Source: Escherichia coli
GTDB taxonomy: Bacteria; Pseudomonadota; Gammaproteobacteria; Enterobacterales; Enterobacteriaceae
Length of the DNA: 64,000 bases
Assembly: GCF_013122565.1 (NCBI RefSeq)
Contig: NZ_CP053258.1
Strand: one strand, 5' to 3'
Part shown: one piece after another, positions 25,425 to 50,577 of the stretch
Layout: each line of letters starts with the position of its first letter
How positions within the stretch are numbered: the stretch's first letter is position 1
Position numbers and translations under genes: made by a program
The notes under the pieces: generated by a model
The model's input: the letters and a program-made list of their open reading frames with translations, nothing else
Told to the model about the DNA's origin: nothing
Databases searched by the model: none

Positions 25425-26557
25425 GACTGAAGATTCTCCGCAAGCCATGATGCCAGCTCGCCCGGTGTCATGGCGGCTATTTGTGCGCCGATATTAACCA
25501 GCGCCTGGGCCGTATCGTGGTCATAGCAGGGTGTTGCGTTGCTATCGAGCGCCGCCAGTCCCAGCACTTTGATGCCGCTCTGGACACACTTTTTCACCTG
25601 ATGCGTCAGCAATGATGATGAACCCCCTTCGTAAAAATCGCTCACGAGGATAATGACGCTTTTTGCTGGTTGTTCAATAAGTTGCCGACCATACTCCACG
25701 GCACTGGCGATATTGGTCCCGCCACCCAACTGTACTTTCATTAATAACTCTACCGGATCGGCAACGTCTGCCGTGAGATCAACGACGCTTGTGTCAAACG
25801 CCACCAGATGGGTACGAATGCCGGGTAACTGCCACAAACAGGCCGCCATCACCGCAGAGTGGATCACCGAATCGACCATCGAGCCGCTTTGATCAACCAG
25901 TAAGACCAGTTGCCATTGTTCGCTTTGGCGTTTAATGCGGCTGTTAAAGCGGGGGGATTCGATATACAACTTGCCGTGTTGCGGGTGCCAGTGTTGCAGG
26001 TTGGCGCGCAGAGTACTTTTGAAATCAAAGTTTCGCGCCAGTGGAATAAATGAGCGGCGACGGCGATCGCGGACACCAGAAAAAGCCTGACGAACCTCCT
26101 TTGCCAGTTGTGCCATAATTTCTTCCACAACCTGGCGCACTATCCGGCGGGCGGCAGCCAGTACTTCGGGATTCATCAGATGTTTGGTGTGCAAAACGGC
26201 GCGTAGCAGGCTTTCAGAAGGCTGCATACGTTCCAGCACGTCGAGATTTGTCACCACATCTTCAATGCCGTAGCGCAGTACGGCATCGCTTTCCAGCCGC
26301 TCAATCACCTGTTGCGGAAACAGCGTGTGAATACTGTTGATCCACTCAGGAGTGGTGAGATTTGAGCCACCTAATCCACCGGAGCGTTCACCACGCTGGA
26401 GCCGTTCAGGATCGCGCCCATACAGCCACTCCAGCGCGTGGTCTATCTGCCGGGCGTTGTCATCCAGCCCACAAAGCGTCGTTTCTGCCGCTTCGCCAAG
26501 AATTAATCGCCAGCGTTGTAGTTCACGGGTGGTCAGAAGATCGTTCAGTTCAGACAT
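25421..26557 (-). CDS. yehP: von Willebrand factor A (VWA) domain protein YehP, 378 aa
   Basis: MIDAS motif DQSGSM seen; start ATG 26557 (MSELNDLLTTRELQ...); 76-codon upstream extension in ORF track rejected; overlaps yehM 3' end by 8 nt. Confidence 0.85.
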   Translation of the reverse strand: MSELNDLLTTRELQRWRLILGEAAETTLCGLDDNARQIDHALEWLYGRDPERLQRGERSGGLGGSNLTTPEWINSIHTLFPQQVIERLESDAVLRYGIEDVVTNLDVLERMQPSESLLRAVLHTKHLMNPEVLAAARRIVRQVVEEIMAQLAKEVRQAFSGVRDRRRRSFIPLARNFDFKSTLRANLQHWHPQHGKLYIESPRFNSRIKRQSEQWQLVLLVDQSGSMVDSVIHSAVMAACLWQLPGIRTHLVAFDTSVVDLTADVADPVELLMKVQLGGGTNIASAVEYGRQLIEQPAKSVIILVSDFYEGGSSSLLTHQVKKCVQSGIKVLGLAALDSNATPCYDHDTAQALVNIGAQIAAMTPGELASWLAENLQS

Positions 26558-28829
26558 GGAAAACTCCCCAGTGTTGCAGCGATGCCAGTGCCTGCTGTTC
26601 GAGTTGTTGATGATGTGCAATGGCTTGTGGTGGACAATGCAACGGCATTTGCAGAGCCGAAACGGGAAGTTGCGCCAGTTGATAATGTTCAAGCACCTGA
26701 TGCGCCAGCGTCCCGCGTTCTCGTGGCGGTAGCCAGGCCATCGCCGCGCGTAAATCGGGCAGGGCATTGATAAAATCGGCATCACTTAGTTGATTTAAAT
26801 GACTGCTGAAACCGGCGATAAATGCCGGCTGACAAGCCAGTTGATGACGGGCTAATGCCAGCAAACCGTGCAGCGCCTCGCCGGATTGGGCCGGGGATAA
26901 CTGCGTCAGCATTGTCAGCGCCGCTTCGGCACTAGCGTTGGGATGTTCCAGACGCATCAGTGCGCCAAGAGTCGCGCCGCGATCCAGCGCCGGGGCATGA
27001 ATCGCCTGACTGCGGCGCTCCAGTAAGGCTACCGCCGCAGAAAGCGAAACGCCGGATAAGTTAACGCCGCTATGTAGATCGCGCAGGATATGGCAAAGCG
27101 CTTGCCAGCTATGCAGGTGAGCGTGAAACTCCTTTTCATCCGGTCTGCCGTTGGATTCACACAGCCACAGCGTGCGATCGATAGCCGCGCATAACGTCGT
27201 TTGTAATATCTGCGCGCCTTGCATACCGCTAATTTCATCCAGCCGCCATAAGGCATATAGCACTTCCAGCGCCTGGCCCATTTCGGCAAATTGATTTTCC
27301 TGGGCGATTAATAATGTGAGTTGTTCCAGTAATTGCTCACTAAAGCTCGCCAGGCCCGCTAACGCCGCCTGGCTAAGACATGCGGTAATGCTGCCGATTC
27401 CACCCGCGTCCAGCATATCGGCTTCTAATTTATTGCGTGCGGCTTCCTGGAGTGTTGCACCAAAGCAGGCGGCCTCAATCAATGCCGCATGCTGGCTAAG
27501 CGGGCGGGTTAATTTCCAGCGTTCTTCACCGTTGCCTGCAAGTGTCAGTGTACTTCCCTGCTGGCGTACAATCCCTGGGATCTCCAGTATTGCCAGCCGA
27601 TGTAACACCTGACTTTGCGCTAGTCCATTGGGGTTAAAGCGATTTAAGGTAAGCTGCGCCGGAAGAGAGATTCCGGTACGTTCCAGTTCGCAGGTGACAT
27701 CTTTTGGCAGAGGCGGTTGTGGCGTGGAGGGGGCAAGTTTACCGAATCCGTCACCCGCTAATGTGTCTATCAACGTTAGCAGAATCGGATCGGTATCGGG
27801 ATGAATAACTCCGCGATAGCTCCACGGCAACGGCGCGTTCAAGGCTTCTTTAATCAGCGAGCCTGCTATGGCATCCAGCCAGTCAGTGCGTAACGGTAGT
27901 GTATGACCGCGCAACTGTGCCAGCGCCATCACATGCAGATGAGCGGCAGCCATATCAGCGGTAGAAGCGGGCAATTTGTGCTGGCGCAAACGGGCAAGGA
28001 TAGTTTTTAGCAGTTGTTCACCGGCCTGCTGTAAGCCCCACTGCCAGCACCAGTTTTGCCAGACCGGGGCAGGCATACCGGAAAGGTATCCAGCCAGCAC
28101 ATCAAGGCGCTTTTCACTGTAGGGGGTGAGATAACAACCTGTAACGGCATCTGCCAGCGACGGCAATTCTGGCGTGTTAATTTCCTGCGGACATTCGCGC
28201 CACATTTTTGCCAGTGCCGGAGCGTGCCAGCCACCGCAGACAACTAACACGTCGCCATTATTTTGCTGCATCGCCCATCCAATCCAGCGGGCCATAAAGG
28301 CTTCGCGCTGACGATTGAGTGCATCGCCGAGGAAATCGCCCCGCAGTTGGGCAAAATAGTGCGCCAGTGCAGAGGGTAATGCAGTTCGCTGGCTTTCATC
28401 TTCGAACAAGTGATCCCACAGGGTATCGCTGTTATCCATGCGGGTGGCACGCAGCAGCAAGGTCTGGCTTTCCTCTTGCGTATCAGGCGAATCGTCCTCT
28501 TCTTCACTCTGTGCCCAGCAAGGCAAATCGATGAAGTAAGTTTGTGCCTGAATACGACGAGCGGCTTGTAGCGCCTGCCACTCCGGCGAAAATTCAGCAA
28601 ATGGCGTCCAGGCACCACGCCCGGGGGCTGCACCGTCCTGATACTGGCAATAACTGTAAATAGCTACCGGAAGCTGGTGGGCTAAAAACAGTTCGTCTAC
28701 CCGGTCATTAAAATCAGCCGGGCCTTCAATCAACACGTATCGTGGCCGCTGGCTTTCGATTAACGATTTCACCAGCCGGGCGCAGGCCGGACTATGATGC
28801 CGGATGCCGACAATTAACAGCTCGCTCAT
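26550..28829 (-). CDS. yehM: large uncharacterised protein YehM, 759 aa
   Basis: Start ATG 28829 (MSELLIVGIRHHSP...); no recognised catalytic motif; second gene of the yehLMPQ cluster. Confidence 0.8.
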   Translation of the reverse strand: MSELLIVGIRHHSPACARLVKSLIESQRPRYVLIEGPADFNDRVDELFLAHQLPVAIYSYCQYQDGAAPGRGAWTPFAEFSPEWQALQAARRIQAQTYFIDLPCWAQSEEEDDSPDTQEESQTLLLRATRMDNSDTLWDHLFEDESQRTALPSALAHYFAQLRGDFLGDALNRQREAFMARWIGWAMQQNNGDVLVVCGGWHAPALAKMWRECPQEINTPELPSLADAVTGCYLTPYSEKRLDVLAGYLSGMPAPVWQNWCWQWGLQQAGEQLLKTILARLRQHKLPASTADMAAAHLHVMALAQLRGHTLPLRTDWLDAIAGSLIKEALNAPLPWSYRGVIHPDTDPILLTLIDTLAGDGFGKLAPSTPQPPLPKDVTCELERTGISLPAQLTLNRFNPNGLAQSQVLHRLAILEIPGIVRQQGSTLTLAGNGEERWKLTRPLSQHAALIEAACFGATLQEAARNKLEADMLDAGGIGSITACLSQAALAGLASFSEQLLEQLTLLIAQENQFAEMGQALEVLYALWRLDEISGMQGAQILQTTLCAAIDRTLWLCESNGRPDEKEFHAHLHSWQALCHILRDLHSGVNLSGVSLSAAVALLERRSQAIHAPALDRGATLGALMRLEHPNASAEAALTMLTQLSPAQSGEALHGLLALARHQLACQPAFIAGFSSHLNQLSDADFINALPDLRAAMAWLPPRERGTLAHQVLEHYQLAQLPVSALQMPLHCPPQAIAHHQQLEQQALASLQHWGVFHV

Positions 28830-28839: not shown

Positions 28840-29928
28840 TCACGGCAGGCGGTGGCGGGCTTGATAATAAGCCTGCCAGTGAGCTTCTTTATGTGTGGCG
28901 ACTCGCTGTTCGAAGTAACGGCGCAGACGAGCGCGATCTTCTTCGTTATCTTTGACGATGGTTCCGGCAATACAGTCCACCAGATCGGCTGGCTCACCTG
29001 CGCGATTCGCTAAAAACCAGGCGCGGACGCCCACAGCGTGGGCCACGTTCACGGCTTCAGCGGTGGACATAATCGCTGTTAGTGTATCCATTGACGTTTT
29101 CTTTTCGCCGTTGGCACGCAGATCGCGGAAGGTGCGGACCAGTAACTCCAGTACCGCGTCAGGCACTTTATGCGGAATACCGCTATGGGCCAGCAAACGC
29201 GCCGAAGCACTGGCGACCAGTTCCAGCTCCTGAGCGAAATCCATAATCGGAAAGACAGTTTCAAAATCGAAGCGACGCTTTAGCGCAGCACTCATCTCAT
29301 TGACGCCGCGATCGCGCGTATTGGCAGTGGCAATAATATTAAAGCCTTCCCGCGCATAGAGTTGACTGGCTTCACCAGTGAGTTCCGGCACCGTCATCAC
29401 CCTGTCAGAAAGCATACCTAACAGACAGTCTTGCACTTCCAGCGGTGTACGCGTTATCTCTTCAAAACGGACGATTTTGCCGTCGCGCATTCCCTGGTAA
29501 AGCGGGGCAGGGACCAGCGCTTCCGTTGATGGACCATGATTGATAAGCAGAGCGTAGTTCCAGCCGTACTTGATTTGATCTTCAGTGGTAGATGCGCCGC
29601 CCTGGATGGTTAACCCGGCATCGCCGCTAATAGCGGTTGCCAGTAATTCAGACAGGAGAGATTTTGCGGTGCCCGGTTCCCCCACCAACATCAAACCGCG
29701 CCCGGTGGCAAGAGTGACTAACATACGTTCGACAGCAGAGGGACTAATCACGACTTTACGGCTAATATTTTGCGCGCTATCGCCAAGGATAAAAGCACGT
29801 GCCGCAGGCAAACTTAACTGCCAACCGGGCGGGCAAGGTGCGTTATCATTTTGTTTTAATTTTGCCAGTTCATCGGCGTATAACACAGCGGCAGGCGGAC
29901 GCTGCAGATGATTATTCTGCGGTGACAT
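28840..29928 (-). CDS. yehL: MoxR-like AAA+ ATPase YehL, 362 aa
   Basis: Walker A LVGEPGTAKS and Walker B-like hydrophobic-DE segment seen; start ATG 29928 (MSPQNNHLQRPP...); 10-nt gap to yehM. Confidence 0.85.
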   Translation of the reverse strand: MSPQNNHLQRPPAAVLYADELAKLKQNDNAPCPPGWQLSLPAARAFILGDSAQNISRKVVISPSAVERMLVTLATGRGLMLVGEPGTAKSLLSELLATAISGDAGLTIQGGASTTEDQIKYGWNYALLINHGPSTEALVPAPLYQGMRDGKIVRFEEITRTPLEVQDCLLGMLSDRVMTVPELTGEASQLYAREGFNIIATANTRDRGVNEMSAALKRRFDFETVFPIMDFAQELELVASASARLLAHSGIPHKVPDAVLELLVRTFRDLRANGEKKTSMDTLTAIMSTAEAVNVAHAVGVRAWFLANRAGEPADLVDCIAGTIVKDNEEDRARLRRYFEQRVATHKEAHWQAYYQARHRLP

Positions 29929-30037: not shown

Positions 30038-30120
30038 ATAAAAAAACCTGCTGGTGAGGCAGGTTCTTTTATTTACTACAGTGACGCTAACTTGCTGATT
30101 GTGCAACATTTCGTACCAAC
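30038..30120 (-). ncRNA. orzO: candidate OrzO-like antitoxin sRNA, copy 1
   Basis: Minus-strand -10 (TATAAT, plus 30127..30132) and intrinsic terminator (hairpin 30047..30063 with U-tract); its 5' region contains GCAACATTTCGTACCAAC, which matches zorO-1 5' UTR 30271..30288 at 17/18 positions as a direct repeat, so the RNAs are complementary. Ends are approximate. Confidence 0.4.
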
Positions 30121-30358: not shown

Positions 30359-30448
30359 ATGGACACGCTGACACAAAAGTTAACCGTGCTCATTGCCGTA
30401 CTGGAGTTATTAGTGGCTCTGTTACGGTTGATTGATTTGTTGAAGTAA
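30359..30448 (+). CDS. zorO: 29-aa hydrophobic type I toxin-like peptide MDTLTQKLTVLIAVLELLVALLRLIDLLK
   Basis: Short ORF with strong SD (AGGAG) and single TM helix; organisation (tandem duplication, long UTR, divergent sRNA) matches the zorO-orzO locus described in E. coli O157:H7. Gene name is from memory. Confidence 0.6.
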   Translation: MDTLTQKLTVLIAVLELLVALLRLIDLLK

Positions 30449-30644: not shown

Positions 30645-30729
30645 AAATAAAAGAACCTGCTGGTGAGGCAGGTTCTTTTATTTACTACTTTGATGTTAAG
30701 TTACTGATAGTGCAACATGGCATCTCAAC
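30645..30729 (-). ncRNA. orzO: candidate OrzO-like antitoxin sRNA, copy 2
   Basis: Same architecture as copy 1 (terminator hairpin 30656..30672; -10 at plus 30736..30741); pairing segment TGCAACATGGCATCTCAAC differs from copy 1 and matches the zorO-2 UTR (30881..30899) with 2 mismatches. Confidence 0.35.
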
Positions 30730-30967: not shown

Positions 30968-31057
30968 ATGGACACGCTGACAAAAAAGTTAACCGTGCTC
31001 ATTGCCGTACTGGAGTTATTAGTGGCTCTGTTACGGTTGATTGATTTGTTGAAGTAA
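30968..31057 (+). CDS. zorO: 29-aa hydrophobic type I toxin-like peptide, copy 2 (MDTLTKKLTVLIAVLELLVALLRLIDLLK; Q6K relative to copy 1)
   Basis: As copy 1; one amino-acid difference. Confidence 0.6.
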   Translation: MDTLTKKLTVLIAVLELLVALLRLIDLLK

Positions 31058-31105: not shown

Positions 31106-31238
31106 TAAAGCTATACTCGTCATACTTCAAGTTGCATGTGCTGCGACTGCGTTCGTTCACCCCGGTCACTTACTTTAGTAAGCTCCTGGGAATTCACTCG
31201 CTTATCGCCTTCCTGCAACTTGAATTATTTAGAGTATA

Positions 31239-31541
31239 TTATTCTATTTCTTGGTTGAATATATTCTGTAGTTCGCGATTAAAAATTGCTATTACCGTTT
31301 CAGGTGATTCACCTCGTAATTTCCGCTCATCAATACACTCATCTCTTATATAAATCAACGCATCATTTATTTGCGGGTCGGCATCATTAAATGTTGGATG
31401 TAGCCGGAATCGCTCCAGCCGGTAGACGGAACCTGTAAATAATTCAGAGCATTTATGGATCTCAAGTCTGAAGGAAAACGGATCTTCAGGTACAGGGACC
31501 TCATAATCGTAAATAGCAACCAGCTCTTTTTGCACGATCAT
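31239..31541 (-). CDS. yehK: uncharacterised small protein YehK (100-aa ORF here)
   Basis: ORF track; sits immediately downstream of yehI (59-nt gap), same strand. Confidence 0.65.
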   Translation of the reverse strand: MIVQKELVAIYDYEVPVPEDPFSFRLEIHKCSELFTGSVYRLERFRLHPTFNDADPQINDALIYIRDECIDERKLRGESPETVIAIFNRELQNIFNQEIE

Positions 31542-31600: not shown

Positions 31601-34600
31601 TTAATGGAAAATGACGTCGGGTGCGCTTAACGCCTCACTCAAATCAAACACATCAAGTTCGGCAAAAGTGACGGATTTATTGTCACGGTACACTCGAAGA
31701 GAACGGAAGCTCATTAACGCTTTGCTATCAACATTGTAGTGGTTAAAACCGGGTGAAAACTTAAGGACCAGCCGGTACTCGCCCAGGTCATAGACAAATG
31801 CATCCTCATAGCCTGACTCCCAGCCTTTGTATCGCATTCCCATAAGCTGCCCAACGGTAGCGGATTTACCTTCCCAGCGAGTCAGGCTGTTACTGGTTGA
31901 CTCGTCAGGTGTGAGCAGCACCGTGCGGCGCGACAACTGGCGAAAAGGCGGCATAATTTCGTAATCGGCAAAAAGCTGTGCAAATTCACTGCGCATTTCT
32001 GCTGTCATTTCTAACGGGTGGGCAATGCCAATCAGAGCATCCGCAGGCAGGTCAATGGGCTCATCTTGCGCATTGCAGAACTCACCCTCTGCGGCCACAC
32101 GAAAGGCGTTGAGTAAACGACGCGGTTCATTTGCTGGATACACGCCCCATATTAATCGCTGAGTAACCAGGCGGGTAAAGGGATGATTAACAAACAGAGA
32201 ATGAAAATCTGCCAGCGACCAGCGTCGGGTGGTACGTAGGGCTGCTTCAAGACGCGGGAGCAGGTTTTTGCTCACCTGGGTGGCATCTTTTTTTAGCCCT
32301 TTTAGTCGGGCCAGTGCCTCGGGCGCTTTCAGTTGATCGTCATCGGCGCGCAACCGGGGAACACTTTTCTGGCGAACGTTTTGTTGATCAAAGATAACCG
32401 GGTTGAGGTTTTCATCGAAGCGAACGGTAAACTGCCGGGGACCAAAATCAAAAATCAACGCCTGCGGATCATCAAGACCCAGTGTTGGGACTAATCTGTC
32501 CGCTAACTCTTCCTGGCTTAGCCCGCGATTTTCTGCGACCACCTGAAGAAATTCCGCTGCGTTTTCACGTAATGAAGAGGATTTCGCCCGTTGTGATACA
32601 TGATGCAGCTGTATCAGCGCCATATCATTATTCATCAGGGTAAGTATATTCAGACCACTGACAGCACGGGCAGATTTGCCTTCTTGTGGCCAGGCGAGGA
32701 TCTGTGTCGTTAGATCCCGTGCCGTGCTTTCGTCACCAAAGAGACTTAACGCCAGAAATGCCCAGTTGTCTTTTGCGGGGGCACCAGCTTGTTGCCAGGC
32801 GGTGAAGAGATCCCAGGCAAAAGCTGCCAGCGTTTGCGGCTGGCAGAACGATTTCAGTTGTTCCAGTCCGCTATAAAAACGTCCCCCCTGGGTAAAGCGC
32901 AGCATTTCGCCGATAATTTCCAGAGCGTCATCGGTAACAGGTTGATTATTAGTGATAAGTCGAGGCCTGGACCACATTGCCGGATGCCAGAAATCAGGGG
33001 CTTTTGGAATGCGTGCCGGGTAAATCTCTATTTGACTCTGTTTAAGTAATTGTTCCAGGGCAGGCCATACATCAGCGCGATCCCAGCGGTTTGCCACGGT
33101 TTGTAGTAATACGCCATGTCCCTGTTCATACAGTAAACGCAGGGCAAGTAATGCAGCTTCGCTATTATCGCTGGATTTGGTGAAGACAAGAGGGATAAGT
33201 GCAGTAGCCGTATGTTCCGGCCATTGTAAAATCCACTGGCGGGCCAGATCACGCTGCGCCGCGAAACGTCGCCAGACGCGGGCAACAGGCAGGGCCAGTT
33301 CTGTTGCGCCAAAATGAATCAGCAGAGGAAATATCTCTTTTGGATGTCGGGCAAAGGCGGTGTTTAATCCAGGCAAAGCATCGGTACCCAGCACACTTAA
33401 CAGATATTCCCCCCCGGTGTAATGAAAATCAGCCTCGACAATTTGTTGCCAGCACGATACCGCCATTTCGTGCGGCATCTGCGCGATAAGGTACAGATTC
33501 CAAATCCCCCAACGCTTTTTATTACCATAGTAAAATCCGTGCTGAAAAGTTCGCCACCCTCCCATCAGCGCAATGCTATCTTGTGCCAGTAATGCTTTGG
33601 TGGCTTCTTCCCGGTACTGTTTAGATTTGGCCTGATACGCGTGATAAGTACGCAATAGTCCTATTGATGTGTATTCTTGCAGTTGCTGAGCATCAAAGGC
33701 ATCCAACTGTCCATGAAGAAGACGCTTATTAAATTCCAGGCTATGAACGTCAAAACCTAATTCCCGCAAGAAGGTATCCGCCCCTCTCTTAGCAAGACGT
33801 TCGTCAAAAGACATGGCGCTAAAATGGTCAATTGCAGTTTGCTGTTCCGGCGTCCAGTGTTTATTCGGCGACCTGTACGTTTGCGGTGCAAGCGTAAGAT
33901 CAGGCAGCGAAAAGTGAGGTATGGAAGTCTTTTTCTTCCTCCCACGCCATGGTGGTGAAACGAGGATTTCAGGCATTTGGCTGTTATCGGTACTATCAAT
34001 AACCGGTTTGGGCGGTGCCAATAAATAACTATTCAGTACTGCCCGGGCTTGAGTACTTAACCACTGCATCACCTCTTCTGCCAGTTGTGGCTGCGATGCC
34101 ATCAGCGTTTGTAACAGCGTACGCCAGTATTCATCTCGAGCTTTTTGCTGGGCAGGCAGCTTTTTGTCTTCGATGATTGGATAACCAGGGCGGGCTGGTG
34201 GTTCTTTTAACGCCAGCAGTTCTGCCAGTGCCGCGAGCGTCGCGTGGGGGAAGTTTTTACTGTATTTAGCCACACGTTGCAGGCTGGGTTTGTTTTTATC
34301 AGCCACCAGTAGCAAGGTGCGGATGACCTGCGGATGGTTAATTTGTACCAACAGACTGCCGCAATCTTCTTTATGGGCATACATCGCGAGGCGCGGAATG
34401 GCTGCCAGTCCTTGTTCGCGCAAAAGGGCGGCGCAGGCCGCGTAGCCGAAGTGGTTTTCATGCGACATGTAGCTGGCTTCGCGATCGCTAAATATATCCT
34501 GACTCCAGTAGTGATCGAGTTTCCTCACCGCTGTGGGGTCATTAGCAACAACTTTTAGCCACTCCTTAGAATGATAATGAGTCCGTGGGCATTCAAGGCC

Positions 34601-35248
34601 TATCAACTCATTGGCGATTTCTGGTTTTTCCGGGAGGATCAGCGCAATAAAAGGGCGGCGAACTTTGGTTATTCCTGGCAGTGCGGCAATGAGTTTGTCG
34701 GCGCAACGCTGCCAGCAGCTTTCCTCTGCCAGAGAGAGATGCTTACGCAGTCGGAGATCGAATTCGTTATAGGTTTCTGATCGATAACCATAGCCATAGT
34801 CCTCGTTCTGATACTGCAATGTCACTACCAGAGGATCACTCTCATAACACCGCGCAATAAACTGGCGTGCAATCACCACCTCAGTCGCATATTCCAGCCC
34901 CTCTTGTTGGACGATTTCGTCGAGTAACTGTTGGCTGTCATTTTGCGCGATACAGGCTAGCGCCGCCATTGTCCGGGCCGGGATTGAGGGTTTGTGTTCG
35001 CCGATCAAGTTGATGGCCTGCGTGATGGCGGACTGCCACTCCAGTGAAAAATTCTCATAACGCCAGACAATGTTTTTTTTCTTCTCAGCTTTTTGTAGCA
35101 ATTCATCACCCAGTGTCTGAATGATGCTTTCAGTGATAACAGGCACTGGTTCGCCCGGCCAATTGCGATGGCTGAGTGGTGTTTTGCCTTTTTTATATTT
35201 CAGTTCCAGTTGGGCGTTATCCGCCAGCCACGGTAATTCCTTGTCCAT
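31601..35248 (-). CDS. yehI: giant MolR-like protein YehI (1215 aa), lacking the N-terminal WGR domain
   Basis: Shares conserved C-terminal blocks with the four upstream paralogs (FAQLFADYEIMPPFRQL, RRWSLADF...HPFTRLVTQRLIWGVY, LEYATEVVIA); begins at the LPWLADN motif that follows the WGR domain in the paralogs. Confidence 0.85.
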   Translation of the reverse strand: MDKELPWLADNAQLELKYKKGKTPLSHRNWPGEPVPVITESIIQTLGDELLQKAEKKKNIVWRYENFSLEWQSAITQAINLIGEHKPSIPARTMAALACIAQNDSQQLLDEIVQQEGLEYATEVVIARQFIARCYESDPLVVTLQYQNEDYGYGYRSETYNEFDLRLRKHLSLAEESCWQRCADKLIAALPGITKVRRPFIALILPEKPEIANELIGLECPRTHYHSKEWLKVVANDPTAVRKLDHYWSQDIFSDREASYMSHENHFGYAACAALLREQGLAAIPRLAMYAHKEDCGSLLVQINHPQVIRTLLLVADKNKPSLQRVAKYSKNFPHATLAALAELLALKEPPARPGYPIIEDKKLPAQQKARDEYWRTLLQTLMASQPQLAEEVMQWLSTQARAVLNSYLLAPPKPVIDSTDNSQMPEILVSPPWRGRKKKTSIPHFSLPDLTLAPQTYRSPNKHWTPEQQTAIDHFSAMSFDERLAKRGADTFLRELGFDVHSLEFNKRLLHGQLDAFDAQQLQEYTSIGLLRTYHAYQAKSKQYREEATKALLAQDSIALMGGWRTFQHGFYYGNKKRWGIWNLYLIAQMPHEMAVSCWQQIVEADFHYTGGEYLLSVLGTDALPGLNTAFARHPKEIFPLLIHFGATELALPVARVWRRFAAQRDLARQWILQWPEHTATALIPLVFTKSSDNSEAALLALRLLYEQGHGVLLQTVANRWDRADVWPALEQLLKQSQIEIYPARIPKAPDFWHPAMWSRPRLITNNQPVTDDALEIIGEMLRFTQGGRFYSGLEQLKSFCQPQTLAAFAWDLFTAWQQAGAPAKDNWAFLALSLFGDESTARDLTTQILAWPQEGKSARAVSGLNILTLMNNDMALIQLHHVSQRAKSSSLRENAAEFLQVVAENRGLSQEELADRLVPTLGLDDPQALIFDFGPRQFTVRFDENLNPVIFDQQNVRQKSVPRLRADDDQLKAPEALARLKGLKKDATQVSKNLLPRLEAALRTTRRWSLADFHSLFVNHPFTRLVTQRLIWGVYPANEPRRLLNAFRVAAEGEFCNAQDEPIDLPADALIGIAHPLEMTAEMRSEFAQLFADYEIMPPFRQLSRRTVLLTPDESTSNSLTRWEGKSATVGQLMGMRYKGWESGYEDAFVYDLGEYRLVLKFSPGFNHYNVDSKALMSFRSLRVYRDNKSVTFAELDVFDLSEALSAPDVIFH

Positions 35249-35257
35249 GCTCTTTCC

Positions 35258-38200
35258 TTATTCAAACAGGGCTTCAATATCATTAATTAACTCGCTGGTG
35301 GTGATGGCATCGAGTACGGAGAACTGCGCTTCCTGAGTTGAATTATTCCTCCAGCCATAGCTTTCTGCTTTGCCTTCCCATAGCCACAGCTTGCTTAAGA
35401 GCTGCTCGGCGCTAAGTTCGGCTGGCGACATACCCACAGCAAAGCCTTCATCGATTTCCATGATTAACGACCAGCGGCCCAGGGGTTTGATCATCCAGCA
35501 GATCCAGCCTCCATCCTGTGGTTCGCCCTTTATCCAGCCTTTATTCGCCAGCCCCATGACCCGACCACTCGGGCATTTTCTGCCTGCCCAGCGGGTCAGT
35601 TCGCTGGCGTTGCGCTCGGCTTCTGTCAGGGCGTAACTGTTACGGTCAAGCTGACGGAACGGTGGTAGCAGTTCGTAGTCGGCAAAAAGCTGACCAAAGG
35701 CGGCAGCATCCGTCGGTGATATTTCCAGAACGTGAGGAATACCAATAGAGATATCGCCTTCCGGCAGGGTGAAAAGATCATCGTCAGCGGTGCTGTAACT
35801 GTTATCTTCCGCCACGCGAAAGCACGCCAGCAGCTGGTTTTCGGCGCTATAAACGCCCCAAATCAGACGACGGGTTAAGTGGCGAACCAGCGGGTGCTCA
35901 ACCAGGAAAAGCTGAAAGTTTTCCGGCGACCAGCGGCGGCGCAGGCACATGGCGGATTCCAGCCTTGCTACCTGCTGGGCGGCGACGGTACGCGCATCTT
36001 TTTTCAGCAATTTGTAGCGGTTTACCGCCTCATCAGCCCGCGATTCATCATCGCTTTTATTGGGTTTAGGTAAGTCTTTCAGGCGGCTGCCGGAAACATC
36101 ACGCACAAACGGTTTTAAGGTTTCATCAAAGCTGACGGTGAACTGGCGTGAGCCGAAATCCAGCAGCAACGAACCGTTATCATCCAGACCGAGATCCGGG
36201 GCCAGGCGATCTTCTAGCTCCGCCACCGTGAGTTCGCGGCTTTCGGCAATGTCGGCAATTTTTTCTTTTGCCCGCTCCTGTAATGCTTTGAATTTCAGTT
36301 TCTGGGCGATGCCGTTAAGTTGCATCAAGGCGATATCACTACCGATAGTGGCGAGAATATCCAACCCAACGGTGGCGCGTTTATGCTGGGATTCACCAGG
36401 CCAGGCACGGATTAATGGCGTCAGTTTGCGGGCGGTGTCATCGTTACCGAGAACACCTAACGCGTTGAACGCCCAGCTCTCTTTCGACGGCGCGCCAGCG
36501 GTCTGCCAGGCGGTAAACAGATCCCAGGCAAATCCCGCCAGTGAGTCGGGGGTACAGGCATCTTTCACCTGCAATAATCCCGGATACAGTGCCTCTTCCT
36601 GAGGGAAGCGGAGCATTTCACCGAGGTAGAGTAGGGCGCTATCGGGCAGTGATTGGGCGTTTGCTTTTAATACCGGGCGCGTCCAGAGCGATGGCTGATA
36701 AAAGGCCGGAAGAGTGGGGATTTTTGTCGGGTGATTATCTAAGGGATCGAGCGCAAGCAGAGCGTTCACCGCGTCTGTTACTTCCGGCTGGTTATAACGC
36801 CGGGCGATTTCTTGCAGTAATGGCTGATGACCGTTTTCGGTAAGCATACGCAAGGCAGCGCGGGCGTTATCCTGTGCTTCACCGGCTTTGCCGAGCGCGG
36901 CAGGCAGCAGGCCGGTAATGGCGTGTTCCGGGTATTTCAACAGCCAGCTACGGGCGTCTTGTCGTAGGGTTTTGAGTTTGTTGAAGGCGCGGGCAATCAG
37001 TGGCGCTAATTCGATAGCCGCAAAATATTGTGCTATAGGCAGCGCTTCTTGCGGATAGCGAGATGCTGAGTGGATAAAACCTGTTAAACCAGCAAGTCGA
37101 AGATGCAACATTACTTGTTTTGCACCTGTATGTGGTTCTTTACTAAGGATGTTCCACATCTCGATAGCTTTATTAATGGGTAAAACATGGAGTGAAGAAA
37201 GATTCCATTCGCCCTGATAAGGGGAGTTATAGGACTTAAAAGCATCAATCAGCGCTGAATAATCTTCACGCTGCCAGGCATCCAGTGCTATTTCTGGAAC
37301 ATCAATATAGCCTCTATGTTTGTTCCAATCCCAGCGGTTGAATCCCAGGGAGGTCAGAAAAGCTTTTTCTCCCTCAGCTTGCTGATGAGGTTGCCAGTTA
37401 TGCTGCACTTGCAGTGTTTTGCTTTTTGTTTCATTTATTGTACAGAAGGATTCTAGGGATAATGGTGCTAAATCCAGCACCGAAATCGTCGATTTTTTCT
37501 TTTTAGCCAGCCAGGGCGGTGAGATTAGTACGGCAGGCAGCAAATCGGCGTTCGCATAAACTGAAGGTTGTGTCAGTTGTTGCAGGCATGACTTAAGTTC
37601 GGTAACCGCCGGAGCAGATAGCCAGGGAATTACCTGCTCTGCTAATGTTGGTTGTGAGATAAGCATTGTCATTAGCATCATGCGCCAGCGCTTTTCATCT
37701 TTTTGTGCCAGAAGTTCTGCTAATGCCGCCAGCGCTGCATGTGGAAAGCGAACGAAAGCCTTTGTCATGCGATCGTGGCAACGCTTTCCCTGCTCGCTTG
37801 CATGGATAAGTAGTGTAAGTGCCTGGGGGTGGTTGATATGCATCAACACTTCCCCACATGTGTCACCAGCAGCGTAAGGAGCAAAACGGGCCAGCGCAGC
37901 GACACCTTGCTCCTTGAGTATCGTTGCACACCAGATTTTACCGCCGTAATAATCATCAAATACCTGCCCAGGCTGTCCTGGATAGTATTTTCCCAGTTCT
38001 GCCAATACCTGCTCGTCGGTGGTCGTCAGTTTCAGCCATTCCAGCGCATATAACCCTTTTTGTCCACAAAGATGTCTGGCAATCTCATGAGCTACTTCTG
38101 GTTTTTCCGGCAACAATAGTGCAACCAGTGGCTGGTGCCACGTGGGCATGGTTCCGAGAGCGGCAATCAGTTTGTCGGCGCAGCGCTGCCATACATCGTC

Positions 38201-39016
38201 ATTTGCAAGTGAGAGATGCTTACGCAGGCGCATTTCAACCGAAGCGAAGCGTAACAGATAGCCAGGCTGCCTGTTATCCGGGGTAACCGTAATGAGATGG
38301 GCATCATAATCCCAGTCGAAGCGGATGAATTGCAATGCAATGACAACCTCAGTGGCATATTCCAGACCACCTTCCTGGACAATTTGATCCATTAGCTCTT
38401 CATGATCGTTACGATTGAAGCCTTGTTCCAGCGCAACCAGTACCGCCAGAACCATCGGTGGTAGCGTGGTGCTAATTGGCGAGTCGATAAGGCCTACGGC
38501 TTGTGTAATTGCCTGCTGCCAGTCCAGTGAACAGGTGCTGTAATCGAAGGTGAGCACCTTTTTAAAACGCCGGTGAGTATTCGCGGCGACGGAGCGTAGC
38601 AGGGTTAATTCATTCTCCTGTGGCACAGGAGCGCCAGGCCAGCGTCGATGACTTAGTGTGGTTGGCGCAACCTCTGTCGGTAAAATGATTTGGGTGTCGT
38701 CTGCCAGCCAGGGGAGGTGGTCTCCAGTAAATGCCGGTTTGTCTTGTGGCAAAGGGGTTATTTCCGGGCATTCGATAACCTTGCCGGGCGCAGATGTCGG
38801 TGTCATCACGGATACTTCTTCTACGTAGCCCTTTTTTGTTTTCTCCGTAATCAGCTTCAGTTCCGCTTTTTCCGCCGCTGCAGCATCTGCAAAGCTTTTT
38901 ACCTGGCTTTGCCCGTTAGTACCGACTTTGCCCCAGGTAATATGCAGCTCGTTTCCCTGCTGCTCCACCGCCCAGAATTTATGTGATTTTTCATCCTGAT
39001 AAATATAGGTTTTCAT
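35258..39016 (-). CDS. MolR-like giant protein, paralog 1 (1252 aa): N-terminal WGR domain plus YehI-like body
   Basis: N-terminus MKTYIYQDEKSHKFWAVEQQGNELHITWGKVGTNGQ (WGR signature); body shares blocks with YehI; 9-nt gap to yehI. The corresponding K-12 locus (molR) is a pseudogene by my recollection. Confidence 0.8.
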   Translation of the reverse strand: MKTYIYQDEKSHKFWAVEQQGNELHITWGKVGTNGQSQVKSFADAAAAEKAELKLITEKTKKGYVEEVSVMTPTSAPGKVIECPEITPLPQDKPAFTGDHLPWLADDTQIILPTEVAPTTLSHRRWPGAPVPQENELTLLRSVAANTHRRFKKVLTFDYSTCSLDWQQAITQAVGLIDSPISTTLPPMVLAVLVALEQGFNRNDHEELMDQIVQEGGLEYATEVVIALQFIRFDWDYDAHLITVTPDNRQPGYLLRFASVEMRLRKHLSLANDDVWQRCADKLIAALGTMPTWHQPLVALLLPEKPEVAHEIARHLCGQKGLYALEWLKLTTTDEQVLAELGKYYPGQPGQVFDDYYGGKIWCATILKEQGVAALARFAPYAAGDTCGEVLMHINHPQALTLLIHASEQGKRCHDRMTKAFVRFPHAALAALAELLAQKDEKRWRMMLMTMLISQPTLAEQVIPWLSAPAVTELKSCLQQLTQPSVYANADLLPAVLISPPWLAKKKKSTISVLDLAPLSLESFCTINETKSKTLQVQHNWQPHQQAEGEKAFLTSLGFNRWDWNKHRGYIDVPEIALDAWQREDYSALIDAFKSYNSPYQGEWNLSSLHVLPINKAIEMWNILSKEPHTGAKQVMLHLRLAGLTGFIHSASRYPQEALPIAQYFAAIELAPLIARAFNKLKTLRQDARSWLLKYPEHAITGLLPAALGKAGEAQDNARAALRMLTENGHQPLLQEIARRYNQPEVTDAVNALLALDPLDNHPTKIPTLPAFYQPSLWTRPVLKANAQSLPDSALLYLGEMLRFPQEEALYPGLLQVKDACTPDSLAGFAWDLFTAWQTAGAPSKESWAFNALGVLGNDDTARKLTPLIRAWPGESQHKRATVGLDILATIGSDIALMQLNGIAQKLKFKALQERAKEKIADIAESRELTVAELEDRLAPDLGLDDNGSLLLDFGSRQFTVSFDETLKPFVRDVSGSRLKDLPKPNKSDDESRADEAVNRYKLLKKDARTVAAQQVARLESAMCLRRRWSPENFQLFLVEHPLVRHLTRRLIWGVYSAENQLLACFRVAEDNSYSTADDDLFTLPEGDISIGIPHVLEISPTDAAAFGQLFADYELLPPFRQLDRNSYALTEAERNASELTRWAGRKCPSGRVMGLANKGWIKGEPQDGGWICWMIKPLGRWSLIMEIDEGFAVGMSPAELSAEQLLSKLWLWEGKAESYGWRNNSTQEAQFSVLDAITTSELINDIEALFE

Positions 39017-40450
39017 TGCAAATTCCTTTTAATCAAACAGTGATTCAATATCGTTAATCAGCTCGCTGGCAGTGATGTCGTCGAGCACGGAGAAGGGATA
39101 AACCGATTTGCGCGGCGTCAGTTTGTACAACTGAATGTGCTCAATTTTTTGGTTATCGCTGATTTCGGTGACGGGCAATCCAACACAGAAGCCGGGTGTC
39201 ACACTCAGTTCGACGTAGCCATCATCCACAGCTTTATAAAATGAGTAATAGCCGCCACCATCCAGAACATCGCCCCGTTGCCAGCCTTTATTCATCAGCC
39301 CGGCGACGCGCCAACTCGCTGCCTGGCGACCAGCCCAGCGCTGCAAATCGTTGCTGTTTTTTTCTGAATCAGAGAGCTGAGACCAGGGGCGATCAAGTTG
39401 ACGGAACGGTGGCAGGAGTTCGTAGTCAGAGAACAGTTGGGCAAATTCAGCAGCCTGTGGGGCCGGGATTTCCAGCACATGCGGGATACCGATACAGCCC
39501 TGCGCAAGGGTAAACGGGGTATCCTGACCGTCGCTAAAACTGCCATCCTCCGCCACGCGAAAACAGCAAATAAGGTGATTATCAGCGTCATAAATGCCCC
39601 ACATCAGACGTTGGGTGATATGACGAACCAGGGGATGCTCAACCAGAAACAGGCGGAACTGTTCTGCAGTCCAGCGGCGACGCTGACACATGGCGGCTTC
39701 CAGACGCGAAATCTGTTGTGCAGCTACCGTGCGGACATCTTTTTTCAACAACTTGTAGCGATTTACCGCTTCCTCAGCCAGCGTTTCATCATCGCTTTTG
39801 TTCGGTTTGGGCAGGTCTTTCAGACGGTTGCCGGAAGTATCGCGCACAAACGGTTTTAAGGATTCATCAAAGCTGACGGTGAACTGGCGTGGGCCGAAAT
39901 CCAGCAGCAGCGAACCGTTATCATCCAGACCGAGATCGGGCGCTAACCGGTCTTCCAGCTCTGCGACAGTGAGCTGGCGGCTTTCGGCAATCTGGGCGAT
40001 TTTAGTTCTAGCCTGATCCTGCAAGGCTTTAAATTTTAGCTTTTGCGCAATGCCGTTAAGCTGCATCAGGGCGATATCGCTGCCGATAGCAGCAAGAATA
40101 TCCAGCCCGACAGTGGCGCGTTTATGCTGGGATTCCCCCGGCCAGGCGCGGATGAGCGGGGTGAGTTTGCGGGCGGTGTCATCGTTACCCAGAATCCCCA
40201 GTGTGGTAAATGCCCAGTTATCTTTAGCTGAGCCACTGGCAGATTCCCAACTGAGGAAGAGATCCCAGGCAAAATCGGCAAGAGATTGCGGGGTACAGGC
40301 CTCGATTACCTGTGTAATTCCTGGGTAAAGGGTGGCTTCGCGGGGGAAAGAGAGCATGGTGCACAGGTGCAGGATGGCTGAATCTGAAAGTGCCTTGCCG
40401 TTACTGCGCAGAAGCGGGCGGTGCCATACTTCTGGCGAACACCACCCAGG
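39017..40450. repeat. about 1.4 kb direct repeat (copy A) spanning the 3' part of paralog 2 and its downstream junction
   Basis: Near-identical by eye to 42866..44300 (offset 3849 bp); only scattered substitutions over the first about 1.2 kb; spurious plus-strand ORFs recur at identical offsets (39196/43045, 39798/43647, 40050/43899). Confidence 0.8.
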
Positions 40451-42865
40451 GAGTTTAGCGATTTTCTGCGGATAGTTTTCCAGCGGATCTGCTGCTAAAA
40501 AGTCGGTAAGTGCAGTCATTACCTCAGGTTGTTGGTAACGGCTGGCAATTTTTTTCAGCAACGCGAGATGACCATTATTGGCCAGGTAGCGTAATGTCAT
40601 CCGGGCATCTTGTTGTTCTTTAACTGGTTTACTCAGCGCAATGGGCAGCAGCCCGGTAATGGCATGTTCCGGGTAGGTGGTGAGCCAATATTCAGCGACA
40701 TCTCGTACGGATTTTAACTGGCAAAATGCGCGGGCCATCAGCAGGGCAACTTCAGTGGAACCGAATTGAGCGGCGAGGGGAACCGCCTCCTTAGGGTTTA
40801 CCAGGGCATAACGCAACAGACCTGGTACCGTAGATAGACCAAATCGCTCAACCACTTTTTCAGCACCCACGAGGTGCATGTGTGAGAGTCCATTCCAGAT
40901 TGAGAGCGCTTTCTCTGCTGGTAGACGAGTGAGTATGGATACAGAAAAGGTAATAAAACCTTCATAATCATACTTTGGTCGGGTATTTAACAACGATTCA
41001 TAATCTTCCGTTTCCAGCAGACGAATGGCCGTTTTTGTTACGCCCCATTTAATATCAAATCTTTCTGGATCAGGATTATTCTCATCAAATGCTCCGCTTC
41101 TGAATCCCAGGCGGCGTAAGACTTCAGCAGTAGAAGGTATTTCTGCTTCGGGTTGTGGCTGAGGTTTGGGGCCAATGGACTCCAGAGGTAATACGGGTAA
41201 TGTAAATATCGTCGTGGCTGATTTATTCTTTTTCTTCAGCCAAATTGGATTAGTTAATATACCGGGTAACTCACAAGCATTGGCTATCTCTTCTTTAGCA
41301 TGCAATTGAGGGAAATAACTGAATAAAAGTTGTTTCTGTTCCTCACTCAACCAGGGCATTGTATTACGCAAGGTTTGAGCATTACCTAATACAATTTGTT
41401 CCATCAGGCGAGAATACCTCAGATTTTTAGCACTAAGCAAAGCTGCAGTAAGGGCATAAAGCGCCGATTCTGGGTACTTCGAAGCCGAAATTTCGACACC
41501 TATGGCACATTCCTCTTTGATAAACAACGTAACGACATCAGGATGGTTAATTTCCTGAAGTGCGTGTCTGACAGGATAACTATCGTTAACGCCCTCTTGC
41601 AGACGTGACAGCGCATTAAGACCTTGTTCACGCAGTAGGGTTTTAATACAACGCTTCGTCATATCGCCTCCCCATCCCGTTGTGAGTTCAAGTTGATGGA
41701 AATGCTTCAGCAGACACGTTGCTTGTGGGTCAGTTGTGACAAGGGAAAGCCACTCAATCTCTGGGTAATCATGCATAGGGGCAATTTCCAGGGCTATCTG
41801 ATTGGCAATATCTGGTTTTTCTGGTAGCAAAAAAGCAATTAATGGGCGTCTGCGGGCAGGCAGTGAAGGGAGAGCATCTATGAGTTTATTAGCACAGCGT
41901 TGCCAGGTTTCCTCATCTGTGTGCGAAAGGTGTTCTCGTAAACGTAACTCTATTTCGTCGCTGAATCCATATTTGTAGCGCATGTCGGAAATATCGTGGC
42001 TAAGGCTTACTACAGGTAGATAATAATTGTCTGCCATTTCCCCTCTTCTCAGCGCACTAAAAAGACTATTGTAATGAAGTTTTAAAGTGGCATTTTTTGT
42101 AGGATCGGTATTTGCGTCGTCAGTCATTTGTACATGCTGTATAGCGATAACTAACTCAGTGGCATACTCAAGGCCTCGCAGTTGCACTATGCTATCCAGC
42201 CATGTATGAGGGCGACCGGGGCAGCCGATAATTAATCTTGTTAGTGTCAATATGGCGTCGGAAAGCAACGATCCGTCTTGCTGTAATTTATGGATGCGCG
42301 AAATAGTTTCCTGTAACGCCAATTGCCATTCTGACTGGCATTGGCTGACATCGAGCTTTTGCAGACAGGCAAGGTAAAATGCTGCCCAATATGGGTACTT
42401 TTTTAGTTGCATCCAGAAGAAACCATCTTTATCAACAATGTCCAGAGGATCATTAATCAAGTGACGATGGCTAAACGGCGCGGGTTCATCATTGGCAAAA
42501 ATAACAATTGACTCACCGTCCTTCAGCCAGGGCGGCGTTTCCAACGTGGGCATCGCTTGTGGCTGTGCCGTTTCAGGCGTTGTGAAGTTTCCGGTTGGTA
42601 TTGCTAACTCTTGTACTGAAATTGTGCTTGATATCGGAGAATTTATGATGGTTTCTGGCGAACCATGCTTCACATATCCCTTCTTCATCTTCTCCGCAAT
42701 CAGCTTCAGTTCCGCTTTTTCCGCCGCTGCAGCATCTGCAAAGCTTTTTACCTGGCTTTGCCCGTTAGTACCGACTTTGCCCCAGGTAATATGCAGCTCG
42801 TTTCCCTGCTGCTCCACCGCCCAGAATTTATGTGATTTTTCATCCTGATAAATATAGGTTTTCAT
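39029..42865 (-). CDS. MolR-like giant protein, paralog 2 (1278 aa)
   Basis: Same WGR N-terminus; C-terminal about 470 aa near-identical to paralog 3; 12-nt gap to paralog 1. Confidence 0.8.
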   Translation of the reverse strand: MKTYIYQDEKSHKFWAVEQQGNELHITWGKVGTNGQSQVKSFADAAAAEKAELKLIAEKMKKGYVKHGSPETIINSPISSTISVQELAIPTGNFTTPETAQPQAMPTLETPPWLKDGESIVIFANDEPAPFSHRHLINDPLDIVDKDGFFWMQLKKYPYWAAFYLACLQKLDVSQCQSEWQLALQETISRIHKLQQDGSLLSDAILTLTRLIIGCPGRPHTWLDSIVQLRGLEYATELVIAIQHVQMTDDANTDPTKNATLKLHYNSLFSALRRGEMADNYYLPVVSLSHDISDMRYKYGFSDEIELRLREHLSHTDEETWQRCANKLIDALPSLPARRRPLIAFLLPEKPDIANQIALEIAPMHDYPEIEWLSLVTTDPQATCLLKHFHQLELTTGWGGDMTKRCIKTLLREQGLNALSRLQEGVNDSYPVRHALQEINHPDVVTLFIKEECAIGVEISASKYPESALYALTAALLSAKNLRYSRLMEQIVLGNAQTLRNTMPWLSEEQKQLLFSYFPQLHAKEEIANACELPGILTNPIWLKKKNKSATTIFTLPVLPLESIGPKPQPQPEAEIPSTAEVLRRLGFRSGAFDENNPDPERFDIKWGVTKTAIRLLETEDYESLLNTRPKYDYEGFITFSVSILTRLPAEKALSIWNGLSHMHLVGAEKVVERFGLSTVPGLLRYALVNPKEAVPLAAQFGSTEVALLMARAFCQLKSVRDVAEYWLTTYPEHAITGLLPIALSKPVKEQQDARMTLRYLANNGHLALLKKIASRYQQPEVMTALTDFLAADPLENYPQKIAKLPGWCSPEVWHRPLLRSNGKALSDSAILHLCTMLSFPREATLYPGITQVIEACTPQSLADFAWDLFLSWESASGSAKDNWAFTTLGILGNDDTARKLTPLIRAWPGESQHKRATVGLDILAAIGSDIALMQLNGIAQKLKFKALQDQARTKIAQIAESRQLTVAELEDRLAPDLGLDDNGSLLLDFGPRQFTVSFDESLKPFVRDTSGNRLKDLPKPNKSDDETLAEEAVNRYKLLKKDVRTVAAQQISRLEAAMCQRRRWTAEQFRLFLVEHPLVRHITQRLMWGIYDADNHLICCFRVAEDGSFSDGQDTPFTLAQGCIGIPHVLEIPAPQAAEFAQLFSDYELLPPFRQLDRPWSQLSDSEKNSNDLQRWAGRQAASWRVAGLMNKGWQRGDVLDGGGYYSFYKAVDDGYVELSVTPGFCVGLPVTEISDNQKIEHIQLYKLTPRKSVYPFSVLDDITASELINDIESLFD

Positions 42866-50437: not shown

Positions 50438-50539
50438 TCTGCATCCCTGTAATTTTATCCAGTTGAATGCAGATGCTACCAGTATTTATGCGGGTTAGAG
50501 AGAGACAAAATCGCAAGAAAACAACTTTAGGAATTTATA

Positions 50540-50566
50540 AAGAAAAGGCGCTGTCGATGCAGCGCC
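50540..50566 (-). terminator. intrinsic terminator of metG (stem GGCGCTG/CAGCGCC, U-tract on minus strand)
   Basis: Inverted repeat 50547..50553 / 50560..50566 with AGAAAA (plus) giving UUUUCU downstream on the minus strand, 12 nt after the metG stop. Confidence 0.55.
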
Positions 50567-50577
50567 TTGAAGGGGGA

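Follow-up and report, generated by a model that had tools for sequence, protein, structure and literature searches.

YehI, a WGR-less giant of the MolR/DUF4132 family encoded in a tandem array beside yehLMPQ in Escherichia coli

The closest described relatives of YehI are the MolR-type proteins, which join a WGR domain (PF05406) to DUF4132 (PF13569) and are represented in E. coli by molR, that is, yehF/yehH. Here, we present a comparative analysis of yehI and the genes around it in a 64,000-nt stretch of an E. coli genome (contig NZ_CP053258.1), referred to below as the window; it covers the metG-yeh region, has the gene order of annotated strains and includes a metG gene 99.9% identical to that of several E. 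coli genomes. YehI resembles the MolR-type proteins in its body, a solenoid followed by DUF4132, in its operon and in the PW motif at which the body starts; it differs from them in having neither WGR head nor linker, in a C-terminal third that has not been homogenized and in a diverged tail. By profile match and whole-body homology, it fits the DUF4132/MolR-YehI family and fails the "WGR and DUF4132" subtype. Our sequence comparisons indicate that YehI is a functional, vertically inherited paralog of this family that descends from a WGR-bearing ancestor and has lost the head alone. That YehI exists, contains DUF4132 and lacks a WGR domain is already known, because RefSeq and K-12 annotation separates the "DUF4132 domain-containing protein YehI" from the "WGR and DUF4132 domain-containing protein"; YehL, YehP and YehQ are also already named by domain there, and the searchable literature yielded no study on the function of YehI, DUF4132 or DUF5682. 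Our contribution is incremental and lies in the comparative pattern assembled for the giant proteins and YehLMPQ. The frame that it adds is that of one engine with many exchangeable giants, in which the WGR domain is an optional and repeatedly lost head, the ends of the giants are constant and their middle hypervariable, and natural chimeras occur.

The genes yehLMPQ, which follow the array, recall other described systems. In pairs such as CoxD/E, NorQ/D, CbbQ/O and BchI/D, a MoxR ATPase and a VWA protein act together in metal insertion or enzyme activation. As in these pairs and in RavA-ViaA, an AAA_5 protein (YehL) and a VWA protein with a metal ion-dependent adhesion site (MIDAS; YehP) are encoded together beside a putative client or adaptor; the yeh module, a putative remodeling system, differs in the additional DUF5682 protein YehM and SWIM protein YehQ, in its 1200-residue solenoid giants with an optional WGR domain and in having no linked client enzyme. 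The best matches of YehL among the sequences of the Protein Data Bank (PDB) are the AAA domains of midasin (E=3e-10), and its K-12 annotation is "putative AAA(+) MoxR family ATPase"; YehP matches VWA_CoxE and VWA_2 and has an intact MIDAS motif, DQSGS, while YehM, YehP and YehQ had no solved relatives by sequence. The combination of an AAA_5 domain, a large helical protein and a MIDAS recalls the ring, linker and MIDAS layout of Midasin/Rea1, but the yeh components are on separate polypeptides with one AAA module per chain, and we treat this resemblance as a lead from domain content. With the predicted vWA-MoxR ternary conflict systems (PMC7159879), the yeh module shares a vWA-MoxR pair and large, diversifying, repeat-rich proteins with paralogous expansion; it differs in that the effector and adaptor domain types that define those systems were not found by Pfam or fold search. 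Finally, the heads of the paralogs of YehI belong to the same Pfam family as the WGR domains of PARP1/2/3, which recognize DNA breaks (PMC6294510); in the paralogs, however, the WGR domain is joined via a flexible linker to a solenoid and not to a catalytic domain, and YehI has no WGR domain.

Homology and domain boundaries of YehI

Together, YehI and its MolR-type neighbors take up ~19 kb of the window. The features of the array are as follows.

31601..35248, minus strand: yehI, WGR-less giant of 1215 aa, HEAT-like alpha-solenoid with a C-terminal DUF4132 alpha/beta module (open reading frame [ORF], Pfam, AlphaFold, ratio of nonsynonymous to synonymous substitution rates [dN/dS])
31820..32374, minus strand: DUF4132 Pfam domain of YehI, residues 959-1143 (E=3.1e-47)
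33299..34048, minus strand: hypervariable central cassette of YehI, residues ~401-650 (allele identity and dN/dS)
35249..35257, minus strand: 9-nt spacer GGAAAGAGC between paralog 1 and yehI, Shine-Dalgarno-like (taa-GGAAAGAGC-atg)
35258..39016, minus strand: paralog 1, 1252 aa, WGR, linker, solenoid and DUF4132
38816..38998, minus strand: WGR domain of paralog 1, residues 7-67 (Pfam PF05406, E=1.4e-17)
39029..42865, minus strand: paralog 2, 1278 aa, WGR and DUF4132, last ~440 codons nearly identical to those of paralog 3
42878..46618, minus strand: paralog 3, 1246 aa, WGR and DUF4132
46631..50437, minus strand: paralog 4, 1268 aa, WGR and DUF4132, first gene of the array

A first-pass annotation of the window, made from the sequence alone, had proposed that YehI starts at the LPWLAD motif of its paralogs. 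Consistently, its N-terminus reads MDKELPWLAD and aligns with the paralogs, the equivalent in paralog 1 being GDHLPWLADD at residues ~99-108. Using BLASTP with SEG filtering on, residues 5-1168 of YehI aligned with residues 101-1192 of paralog 1 at 38% identity (E=0); this full-length match rules out that the similarity is a low-complexity artefact, the outcome that the first-pass annotation had named as fatal to its proposal. The corresponding E values were 6e-180 for paralog 2, 5e-172 for paralog 4 and 2e-137 and 1e-31 for paralog 3, which was matched in two pieces. Identity of YehI to the four paralogs is 33-41%, with paralog 1 the closest (38-41%), and an alignment of all five giants has more than 190 invariant columns. 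Pfam detected DUF4132 alone in YehI, and in paralog 1 the WGR domain followed by DUF4132 (residues 976-1161). The heads of all four paralogs match the WGR-containing N-terminus of an NCBIfam model (a Leptospira family; WGR part only), whereas neither Pfam nor a hidden Markov model (HMM) of 48 WGR heads of the family detected a WGR domain in YehI, the latter at E<=10. Thus, the window does encode five related giants of two architectures, as had been claimed, with full-length homology and with a WGR domain in four and none in YehI.

Details of this comparison refine the boundary between head and body. The 9-nt spacer between paralog 1 and yehI noted earlier is present in the sequence, and no in-frame WGR remnant was found 5' of yehI in the window, where just these 9 nt separate it from the paralog 1 stop codon. 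In the paralogs, the WGR domain is not immediately followed by the PWLAD motif as initially described; rather, a variable linker of 30-45 residues, rich in P, A, T and S, lies between them (alignment columns 61-108), and the linkers of other family members are long and of low complexity. In other genomes, WGR remnants do occur: a giant of Duganella Root336D2 keeps "MRRLDFTD" joined to the linker, and two of the representative sequences described below, P0143 and P0170, resemble internal WGR deletions. The C-terminal blocks are indeed common to YehI and its paralogs; the SELINDIE tail, however, is not missing from YehI, the tail of which (DLSEALSAPDVIFH) is a diverged form of it, with S1204 and E1205 invariant in 31 diverse members and a confident helix in the structure model.

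We modeled the two halves of the YehI monomer by AlphaFold2 with 65-sequence alignments and obtained predicted local distance difference test (pLDDT) scores of 84.5 for residues 1-599 and 92.7 for residues 575-1215. In the model, helical repeats extend from residue ~40 to ~920 and are followed at ~930-1215 by a mixed alpha/beta module that holds DUF4132. Because the PW motif is confidently placed in the N-terminal model (pLDDT 82-95), the model suggests that it is part of the body and not of the head. In a PDB sequence search with family profiles, the WGR head matched 2ra8 (E=3e-25) and the WGR domain of PARP3 (E=0.002), and DUF4132 and the solenoid had no solved relative. Pfam and fold searches detected no effector or enzyme domain (nuclease, protease, NADase or pore) in the giants; in neither architecture, then, is there a recognizable counterpart to the effector in the sensor/effector pairing that had been suggested for the locus. 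The relatives of 1400-1670 aa, inspected by eye, contain no obvious effector either, their extra length apparently being low-complexity linker, duplicated body or fused tandem copies. PADLOC-DB v2 had no family for YehI, paralog 1, YehK, YehL, YehM, YehP or YehQ, and PHROGs returned only near-identical singletons without function.

Maintenance, ancestry and mosaic evolution

Compared with its counterpart in E. whittamii, yehI has a dN/dS of 0.24 overall and of 0.06-0.09 over the last 400 codons. WGR-less orthologs of the same length and with the same start are encoded in E. fergusonii, E. albertii, E. marmotae, Klebsiella oxytoca, K. grimontii, K. huaxiensis and Serratia fonticola, and in K. 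oxytoca the WGR-bearing giants are followed by the WGR-less giant and then by yehLMPQ. Because the WGR-less form is under purifying selection, has the same slot in Klebsiella and arose independently elsewhere, the pattern of two architectures is not accidental. The closest WGR-bearing relative of YehI is the lone giant of Intestinirhabdus alba, which is encoded between metG and yehLMPQ and is 54% identical to YehI across the body versus 41% for paralog 1; YehI is 54-55% identical to this giant and to another WGR-bearing giant of E. coli. In a neighbor-joining tree, the I. alba giant is sister to the WGR-less enterobacterial clade. The simplest reading of these sequences would be a single WGR loss at the base of that clade; as a possible alternative, the I. 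alba protein may have regained its head by recombination. We also observed that S. fonticola GCA_045916145.1 (L004/L005) has a lone YehI-type WGR-less giant, 60% identical to YehI, beside an Rpn/Transposase_31 gene and with no yehLMPQ within 10 kb; its occurrence on two contigs of one assembly suggests horizontal transfer or duplication.

The giants are mosaics. Among the four WGR-bearing paralogs, pairwise identity is 85-97% in the head, 15-50% in the middle and 63-100% in the C-terminal third. For paralogs 2 and 3 (39029-40350 and 42878-44200), dS is saturated in the middle, 0.19 over codons 837-936 and 0-0.03 over the final ~340 codons; because the near-zero 3' dS lies beside a saturated middle, the sequences indicate a recent gene conversion or partial duplication at the 3' end. 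Among 5426 complete E. coli genomes, the paralog 2/3 type is found at >=80% coverage in 13, and in the best match it is pseudogenized. The C-terminal third of YehI is outside this homogenization, being 45-53% identical to the WGR-bearing paralogs versus 63-100% among those. YehI has a variable middle of its own: relative to the common E. coli allele P0010, residues ~401-650 are 22-62% identical and the remainder 92-100%, and relative to E. whittamii this cassette has saturated dS and a dN of 0.48-0.78. Two rare natural recombinants of E. coli, P0063 (residues 1-354 of a WGR giant joined to YehI 460-1215) and P0069 (residues 1-290 joined to YehI 377-1215), are 1102 and 1124 aa long, combine a paralog 1- or paralog 4-like head with the body of YehI and have lost ~100 middle residues; presumably, they are products of unequal crossing-over that removed part of the array.

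Linkage to yehLMPQ and candidate roles of the giants

The genes of the putative engine and the site upstream of the array are as follows.

28840..29928, minus strand: yehL, MoxR-type AAA_5 ATPase (annotation of orthologous loci, Pfam AAA_5 in orthologs, PDB sequence matches)
26550..28829, minus strand: yehM, DUF5682 protein (annotation of orthologous loci and Pfam)
25421..26557, minus strand: yehP, CoxE-type VWA protein with a DxSxS MIDAS motif, DQSGS (Pfam in orthologs, motif)
23424..25448, minus strand: yehQ, two SWIM zinc-finger motifs, CxCxnCxH (annotation of orthologous loci, motif)
50447..50462, minus strand: LexA (SOS) box-like CTGGATAAAATTACAG, 10 nt upstream of the paralog 4 ATG (pattern match)

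The conserved association of the giants with yehLMPQ downstream had been passed over by the first-pass annotation. A phmmer scan of 1.84 billion representative sequences (clusters at 50% identity) gave 5696 relatives of YehI at E<=1e-3 and 2204 at E<=1e-30. Of these 5696, the best 115 full-length relatives comprise 75 with and 40 without a WGR domain; by Pfam, 65 aligned relatives all contain DUF4132, and 48 have a WGR domain and 17 do not. We then compared 71 loci from GTDB species genomes, a proteobacteria-biased sample annotated with the proteins of the window. In these loci, the giants almost always directly adjoin homologs of YehL, YehM, YehP and YehQ, with the engine preceding the giants in Burkholderia; the linkage is seen in Gamma- and Betaproteobacteria, a Propionibacteriaceae metagenome-assembled genome (MAG) and Trichlorobacter. 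Each array has one set of yehLMPQ homologs and 1 to 8 or more giants, the maximum being in Massilia. The yeh locus was found in 5425 of the 5426 complete E. coli genomes, and its position between metG and yehR-btsSR is the same in Escherichia, Klebsiella and Intestinirhabdus. The number of matching pieces in an E. coli genome has a median of 6 and a maximum of 10.

The giant of a single-giant locus had a WGR domain in 37 of 37 cases, and intact WGR-less giants are present in arrays of Escherichia, Klebsiella, Duganella, Chitinibacter, Variovorax and Massilia. Because the tree groups WGR-less giants with the WGR-bearing copies of their own genus, it implies that the WGR domain was lost on six or more independent occasions; every one of these truncations stops immediately ahead of the PW motif. 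A rule by which WGR-less giants occur only beside WGR-bearing ones holds in the 71 loci and is broken by L084, a JGI metagenome contig (159-16146) with three WGR-less giants followed by AAA_5, DUF5682, VWA and a fourth gene, that is, a full yehLMPQ-type set; an HMM of the WGR domain had no match there in any frame, and the short giant of this locus, of 764 aa, starts at a mid-body PPWL-KK motif. A subfamily with N-termini of the form "..GGFQWK..W...LP.VRG" also seems to be entirely WGR-less.

With regard to regulation, the array has its own promoter region, because a terminator-like hairpin follows metG. No AT-rich CTG-N10-CAG other than CTGGATAAAATTACAG lies near the array; an identical box is present in Escherichia sp. 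E1V33, a variant (CTGGATGTATGCACAG) lies upstream of the single I. alba giant, and molR is among the LexA-regulated genes with a known SOS box (PMC6590174). We considered an SOS box as a general feature upstream of giants and dismissed it, as it is confined to Escherichia and I. alba among the sampled lineages. The window as a whole contains 41 CTG-N10-CAG matches versus 14.8 expected from shuffles, most of them GC-rich and intragenic; this excess probably reflects codon usage (CTG, CAG) and not LexA sites. Because the spacers are tight (9-12 nt) and no promoter- or terminator-like site was found at the paralog 1-yehI junction, the sequence suggests that the array and yehI are co-transcribed. 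H-NS is reported to silence yehL and yehM by way of the intergenic region in front of them (PMC3686432). Mitomycin C induces two proteins of Deinococcus radiodurans via IrrE/DdrO, one with DUF4132 and another with a WGR domain (PMC8533742).

Based on these data, we propose with moderate confidence that a YehLMPQ remodeler uses the giants as interchangeable subunits, either adaptors or sensors, and that YehI is the untethered version. According to this model, exchangeable giants would share one downstream engine, formed by the midasin-like AAA_5 MoxR ATPase, the DUF5682 protein, the VWA/MIDAS protein and the SWIM protein; the conserved C-terminal third would dock to this engine, while the hypervariable middle would set ligand specificity. 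The WGR head on its flexible linker would tether the complex to DNA; given that the molR SOS box precedes the array, this DNA would probably be damaged. YehI would join YehLMPQ or its paralogs and yet escape WGR-based recruitment. If the module is a DNA-damage- or invader-sensing machine, then comparing YehI with paralog 1 offers a genetic way to learn what the WGR head does.

Several observations weigh against this model. The connection of the giants to YehLMPQ is drawn from synteny alone, orphan giants with and without a WGR domain exist that have no yehLMPQ homologs nearby, and no enzymatic output is identifiable in the giants. In K-12, yehI is intact and the sole WGR-bearing giant is a pseudogene, split into yehF and yehH, from which it follows that inactivity of the system may be common. 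The SOS box is limited to Escherichia and I. alba, yehLMPQ apparently has its own H-NS-bound promoter region, and in the strain of the window an inserted zor/orz locus (see below) parts yehI-yehK from yehLMPQ. Moreover, the C-terminal half of YehI is the most divergent in the sample (39% versus a mean of 54%), and YehI may therefore not dock in the way of other giants. This divergence is common to the whole YehI clade, including the WGR-bearing I. alba protein, and is thus older than the loss of the WGR domain.

Other explanations account for parts of these data. A tandem duplication could have left YehI as a relic, truncated at the 5' end and on its way to becoming a pseudogene, which would fit its missing head and the frequent pseudogenization of neighboring E. 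coli paralogs; this explanation is effectively refuted by the selection and conservation data, since the 1215-codon ORF is intact, dN/dS is 0.06-0.24, orthologs of the same length and start are found throughout Escherichia species, Klebsiella and Serratia, the AlphaFold model is of high confidence, and the headless architecture evolved repeatedly in other genera. A role of MolR/YehI, the CoxE-type VWA protein and the MoxR ATPase in the maturation or regulation of molybdenum or another metal cofactor, with YehI as a client-specific chaperone adaptor, is very improbable. It draws on the match of YehP to VWA_CoxE and on the name molR, which reportedly derives from a molybdate-utilization gene described in 1990. 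However, none of the loci inspected has linked genes for molybdenum, a cofactor or a client enzyme, the K-12 WGR-bearing giant is disrupted, and metal insertion does not readily account for a WGR head and an SOS box; in Deinococcus, DNA damage elicits a response from the DUF4132 and WGR genes but not from moeA or moeB (PMC8533742).

Two further explanations keep the giants in a sensing role. We regard it as unlikely that the locus serves in biological conflict, as an anti-phage or anti-plasmid system, in which NLR-like diversifying sensors would feed a vWA-MoxR switch and YehI would be an alternative sensor or a decoy or guard without DNA tether. The number of giants per locus (1 to 8 or more, with up to 10 pieces per E. 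coli genome), the constant ends, variable middles and gene conversion among paralogs, the hypervariable allelic cassette in YehI, the recombinant chimeras, the type I toxin-antitoxin pair inserted in the locus, the H-NS silencing of yehL and yehM and the place of vWA-MoxR pairs in predicted conflict systems (PMC7159879) all argue for such a system. By contrast, none of the seven proteins searched has a PADLOC match, the giants have no effector domain by Pfam or fold search, the locus has a fixed core position across three genera and is missing from just one of the 5426 complete E. coli genomes, the paralogs are often pseudogenes, and Kaur et al. (PMC7159879) mention neither SWIM nor Yeh, MolR or DUF4132. 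Less probable is that YehI acts as a negative regulator, or decoy, that sets an activation threshold by competing for YehLMPQ or for ligand or by forming inactive hetero-oligomers. Such a role would agree with the conserved C-terminal module that YehI keeps, with the observation that proteobacterial WGR-less giants with yehLMPQ homologs are always accompanied by at least one WGR-bearing giant (single giants having a WGR domain in 37 of 37 loci), and with the position of the WGR-less giant nearest to yehL in Escherichia, Klebsiella, Chitinibacter, Variovorax and a Duganella MAG; in Massilia, however, the WGR-less copy is distal to yehL, and the C-terminal half of YehI is unlike that of its supposed competitors (45-53% identity). 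This explanation is weakened by L084, where an all-WGR-less array has a complete engine and no WGR domain in any frame, showing that a giant can lack the WGR domain without being the decoy of one that has it, and by the hypervariable cassette of YehI, which would be expected of a specificity subunit and not of a generic inhibitor.

Returning to the remodeler model, we speculate, as a bold and rather doubtful extension of it, that the giants and YehLMPQ form a widespread (5696 clusters) and unrecognized machine in which solenoid sensors, DNA-tethered or free, would pass targets to a split midasin-like AAA/MIDAS motor. Such a machine would be a new SOS-linked class of genome surveillance or immunity, in which the WGR-less copies would form a second, regulated arm.

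Further features of the locus

The remaining features between metG and yehL are as follows.

50545..50568, minus strand: terminator-like hairpin 3' of metG
31239..31541, minus strand: yehK, 100 aa, small Escherichia-specific gene after yehI
30359..30448 and 30968..31057, plus strand: 29-aa hydrophobic ORFs, MDTLT[QK]KLTVLIAVLELLVALLRLIDLLK
30040..30113 and 30649..30722, minus strand: OrzO-P antitoxin RNAs (Rfam, 89-90 bits)

On the minus strand, the order from metG is hairpin, SOS-box-like site, paralogs 4, 3, 2 and 1, yehI, yehK, a 1.2-kb insertion, yehL, yehM, yehP and yehQ, and the spacers inside the giant array are 12, 12 and 12 nt and then 9 nt before yehI. The yehK gene is missing from the Klebsiella and I. 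alba loci. The insertion (29995-31238) fills the yehK-yehL intergenic region and contains a type I toxin-antitoxin pair that is tandemly duplicated with a 609-bp period. It matches the zorO/orzO locus, which in O157:H7 lies between yehI and yehL and is absent from K-12 (PMC2887945).

We made three minor observations. The five giant ORFs (31601-50437) share one frame, their ends all being 1 mod 3, and each junction consists of a stop codon and 3-4 codons; because the three 12-nt junctions are copies of each other and the YehI junction in K. oxytoca is out of frame, the common frame is probably a by-product of tandem duplication and not programmed read-through. The region 54000-60000, which in the annotated homologous locus is the yehABCD fimbrial operon, has a low GC content (0.38-0.46), consistent with a horizontally acquired, H-NS-type region beside the array. 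Finally, 31116-31239 on the minus strand, just 3' of yehK, has a sub-threshold Rfam match to V_AS5, a Vibrio antisense RNA (40 bits versus a gathering threshold of 96), which is probably due to chance.

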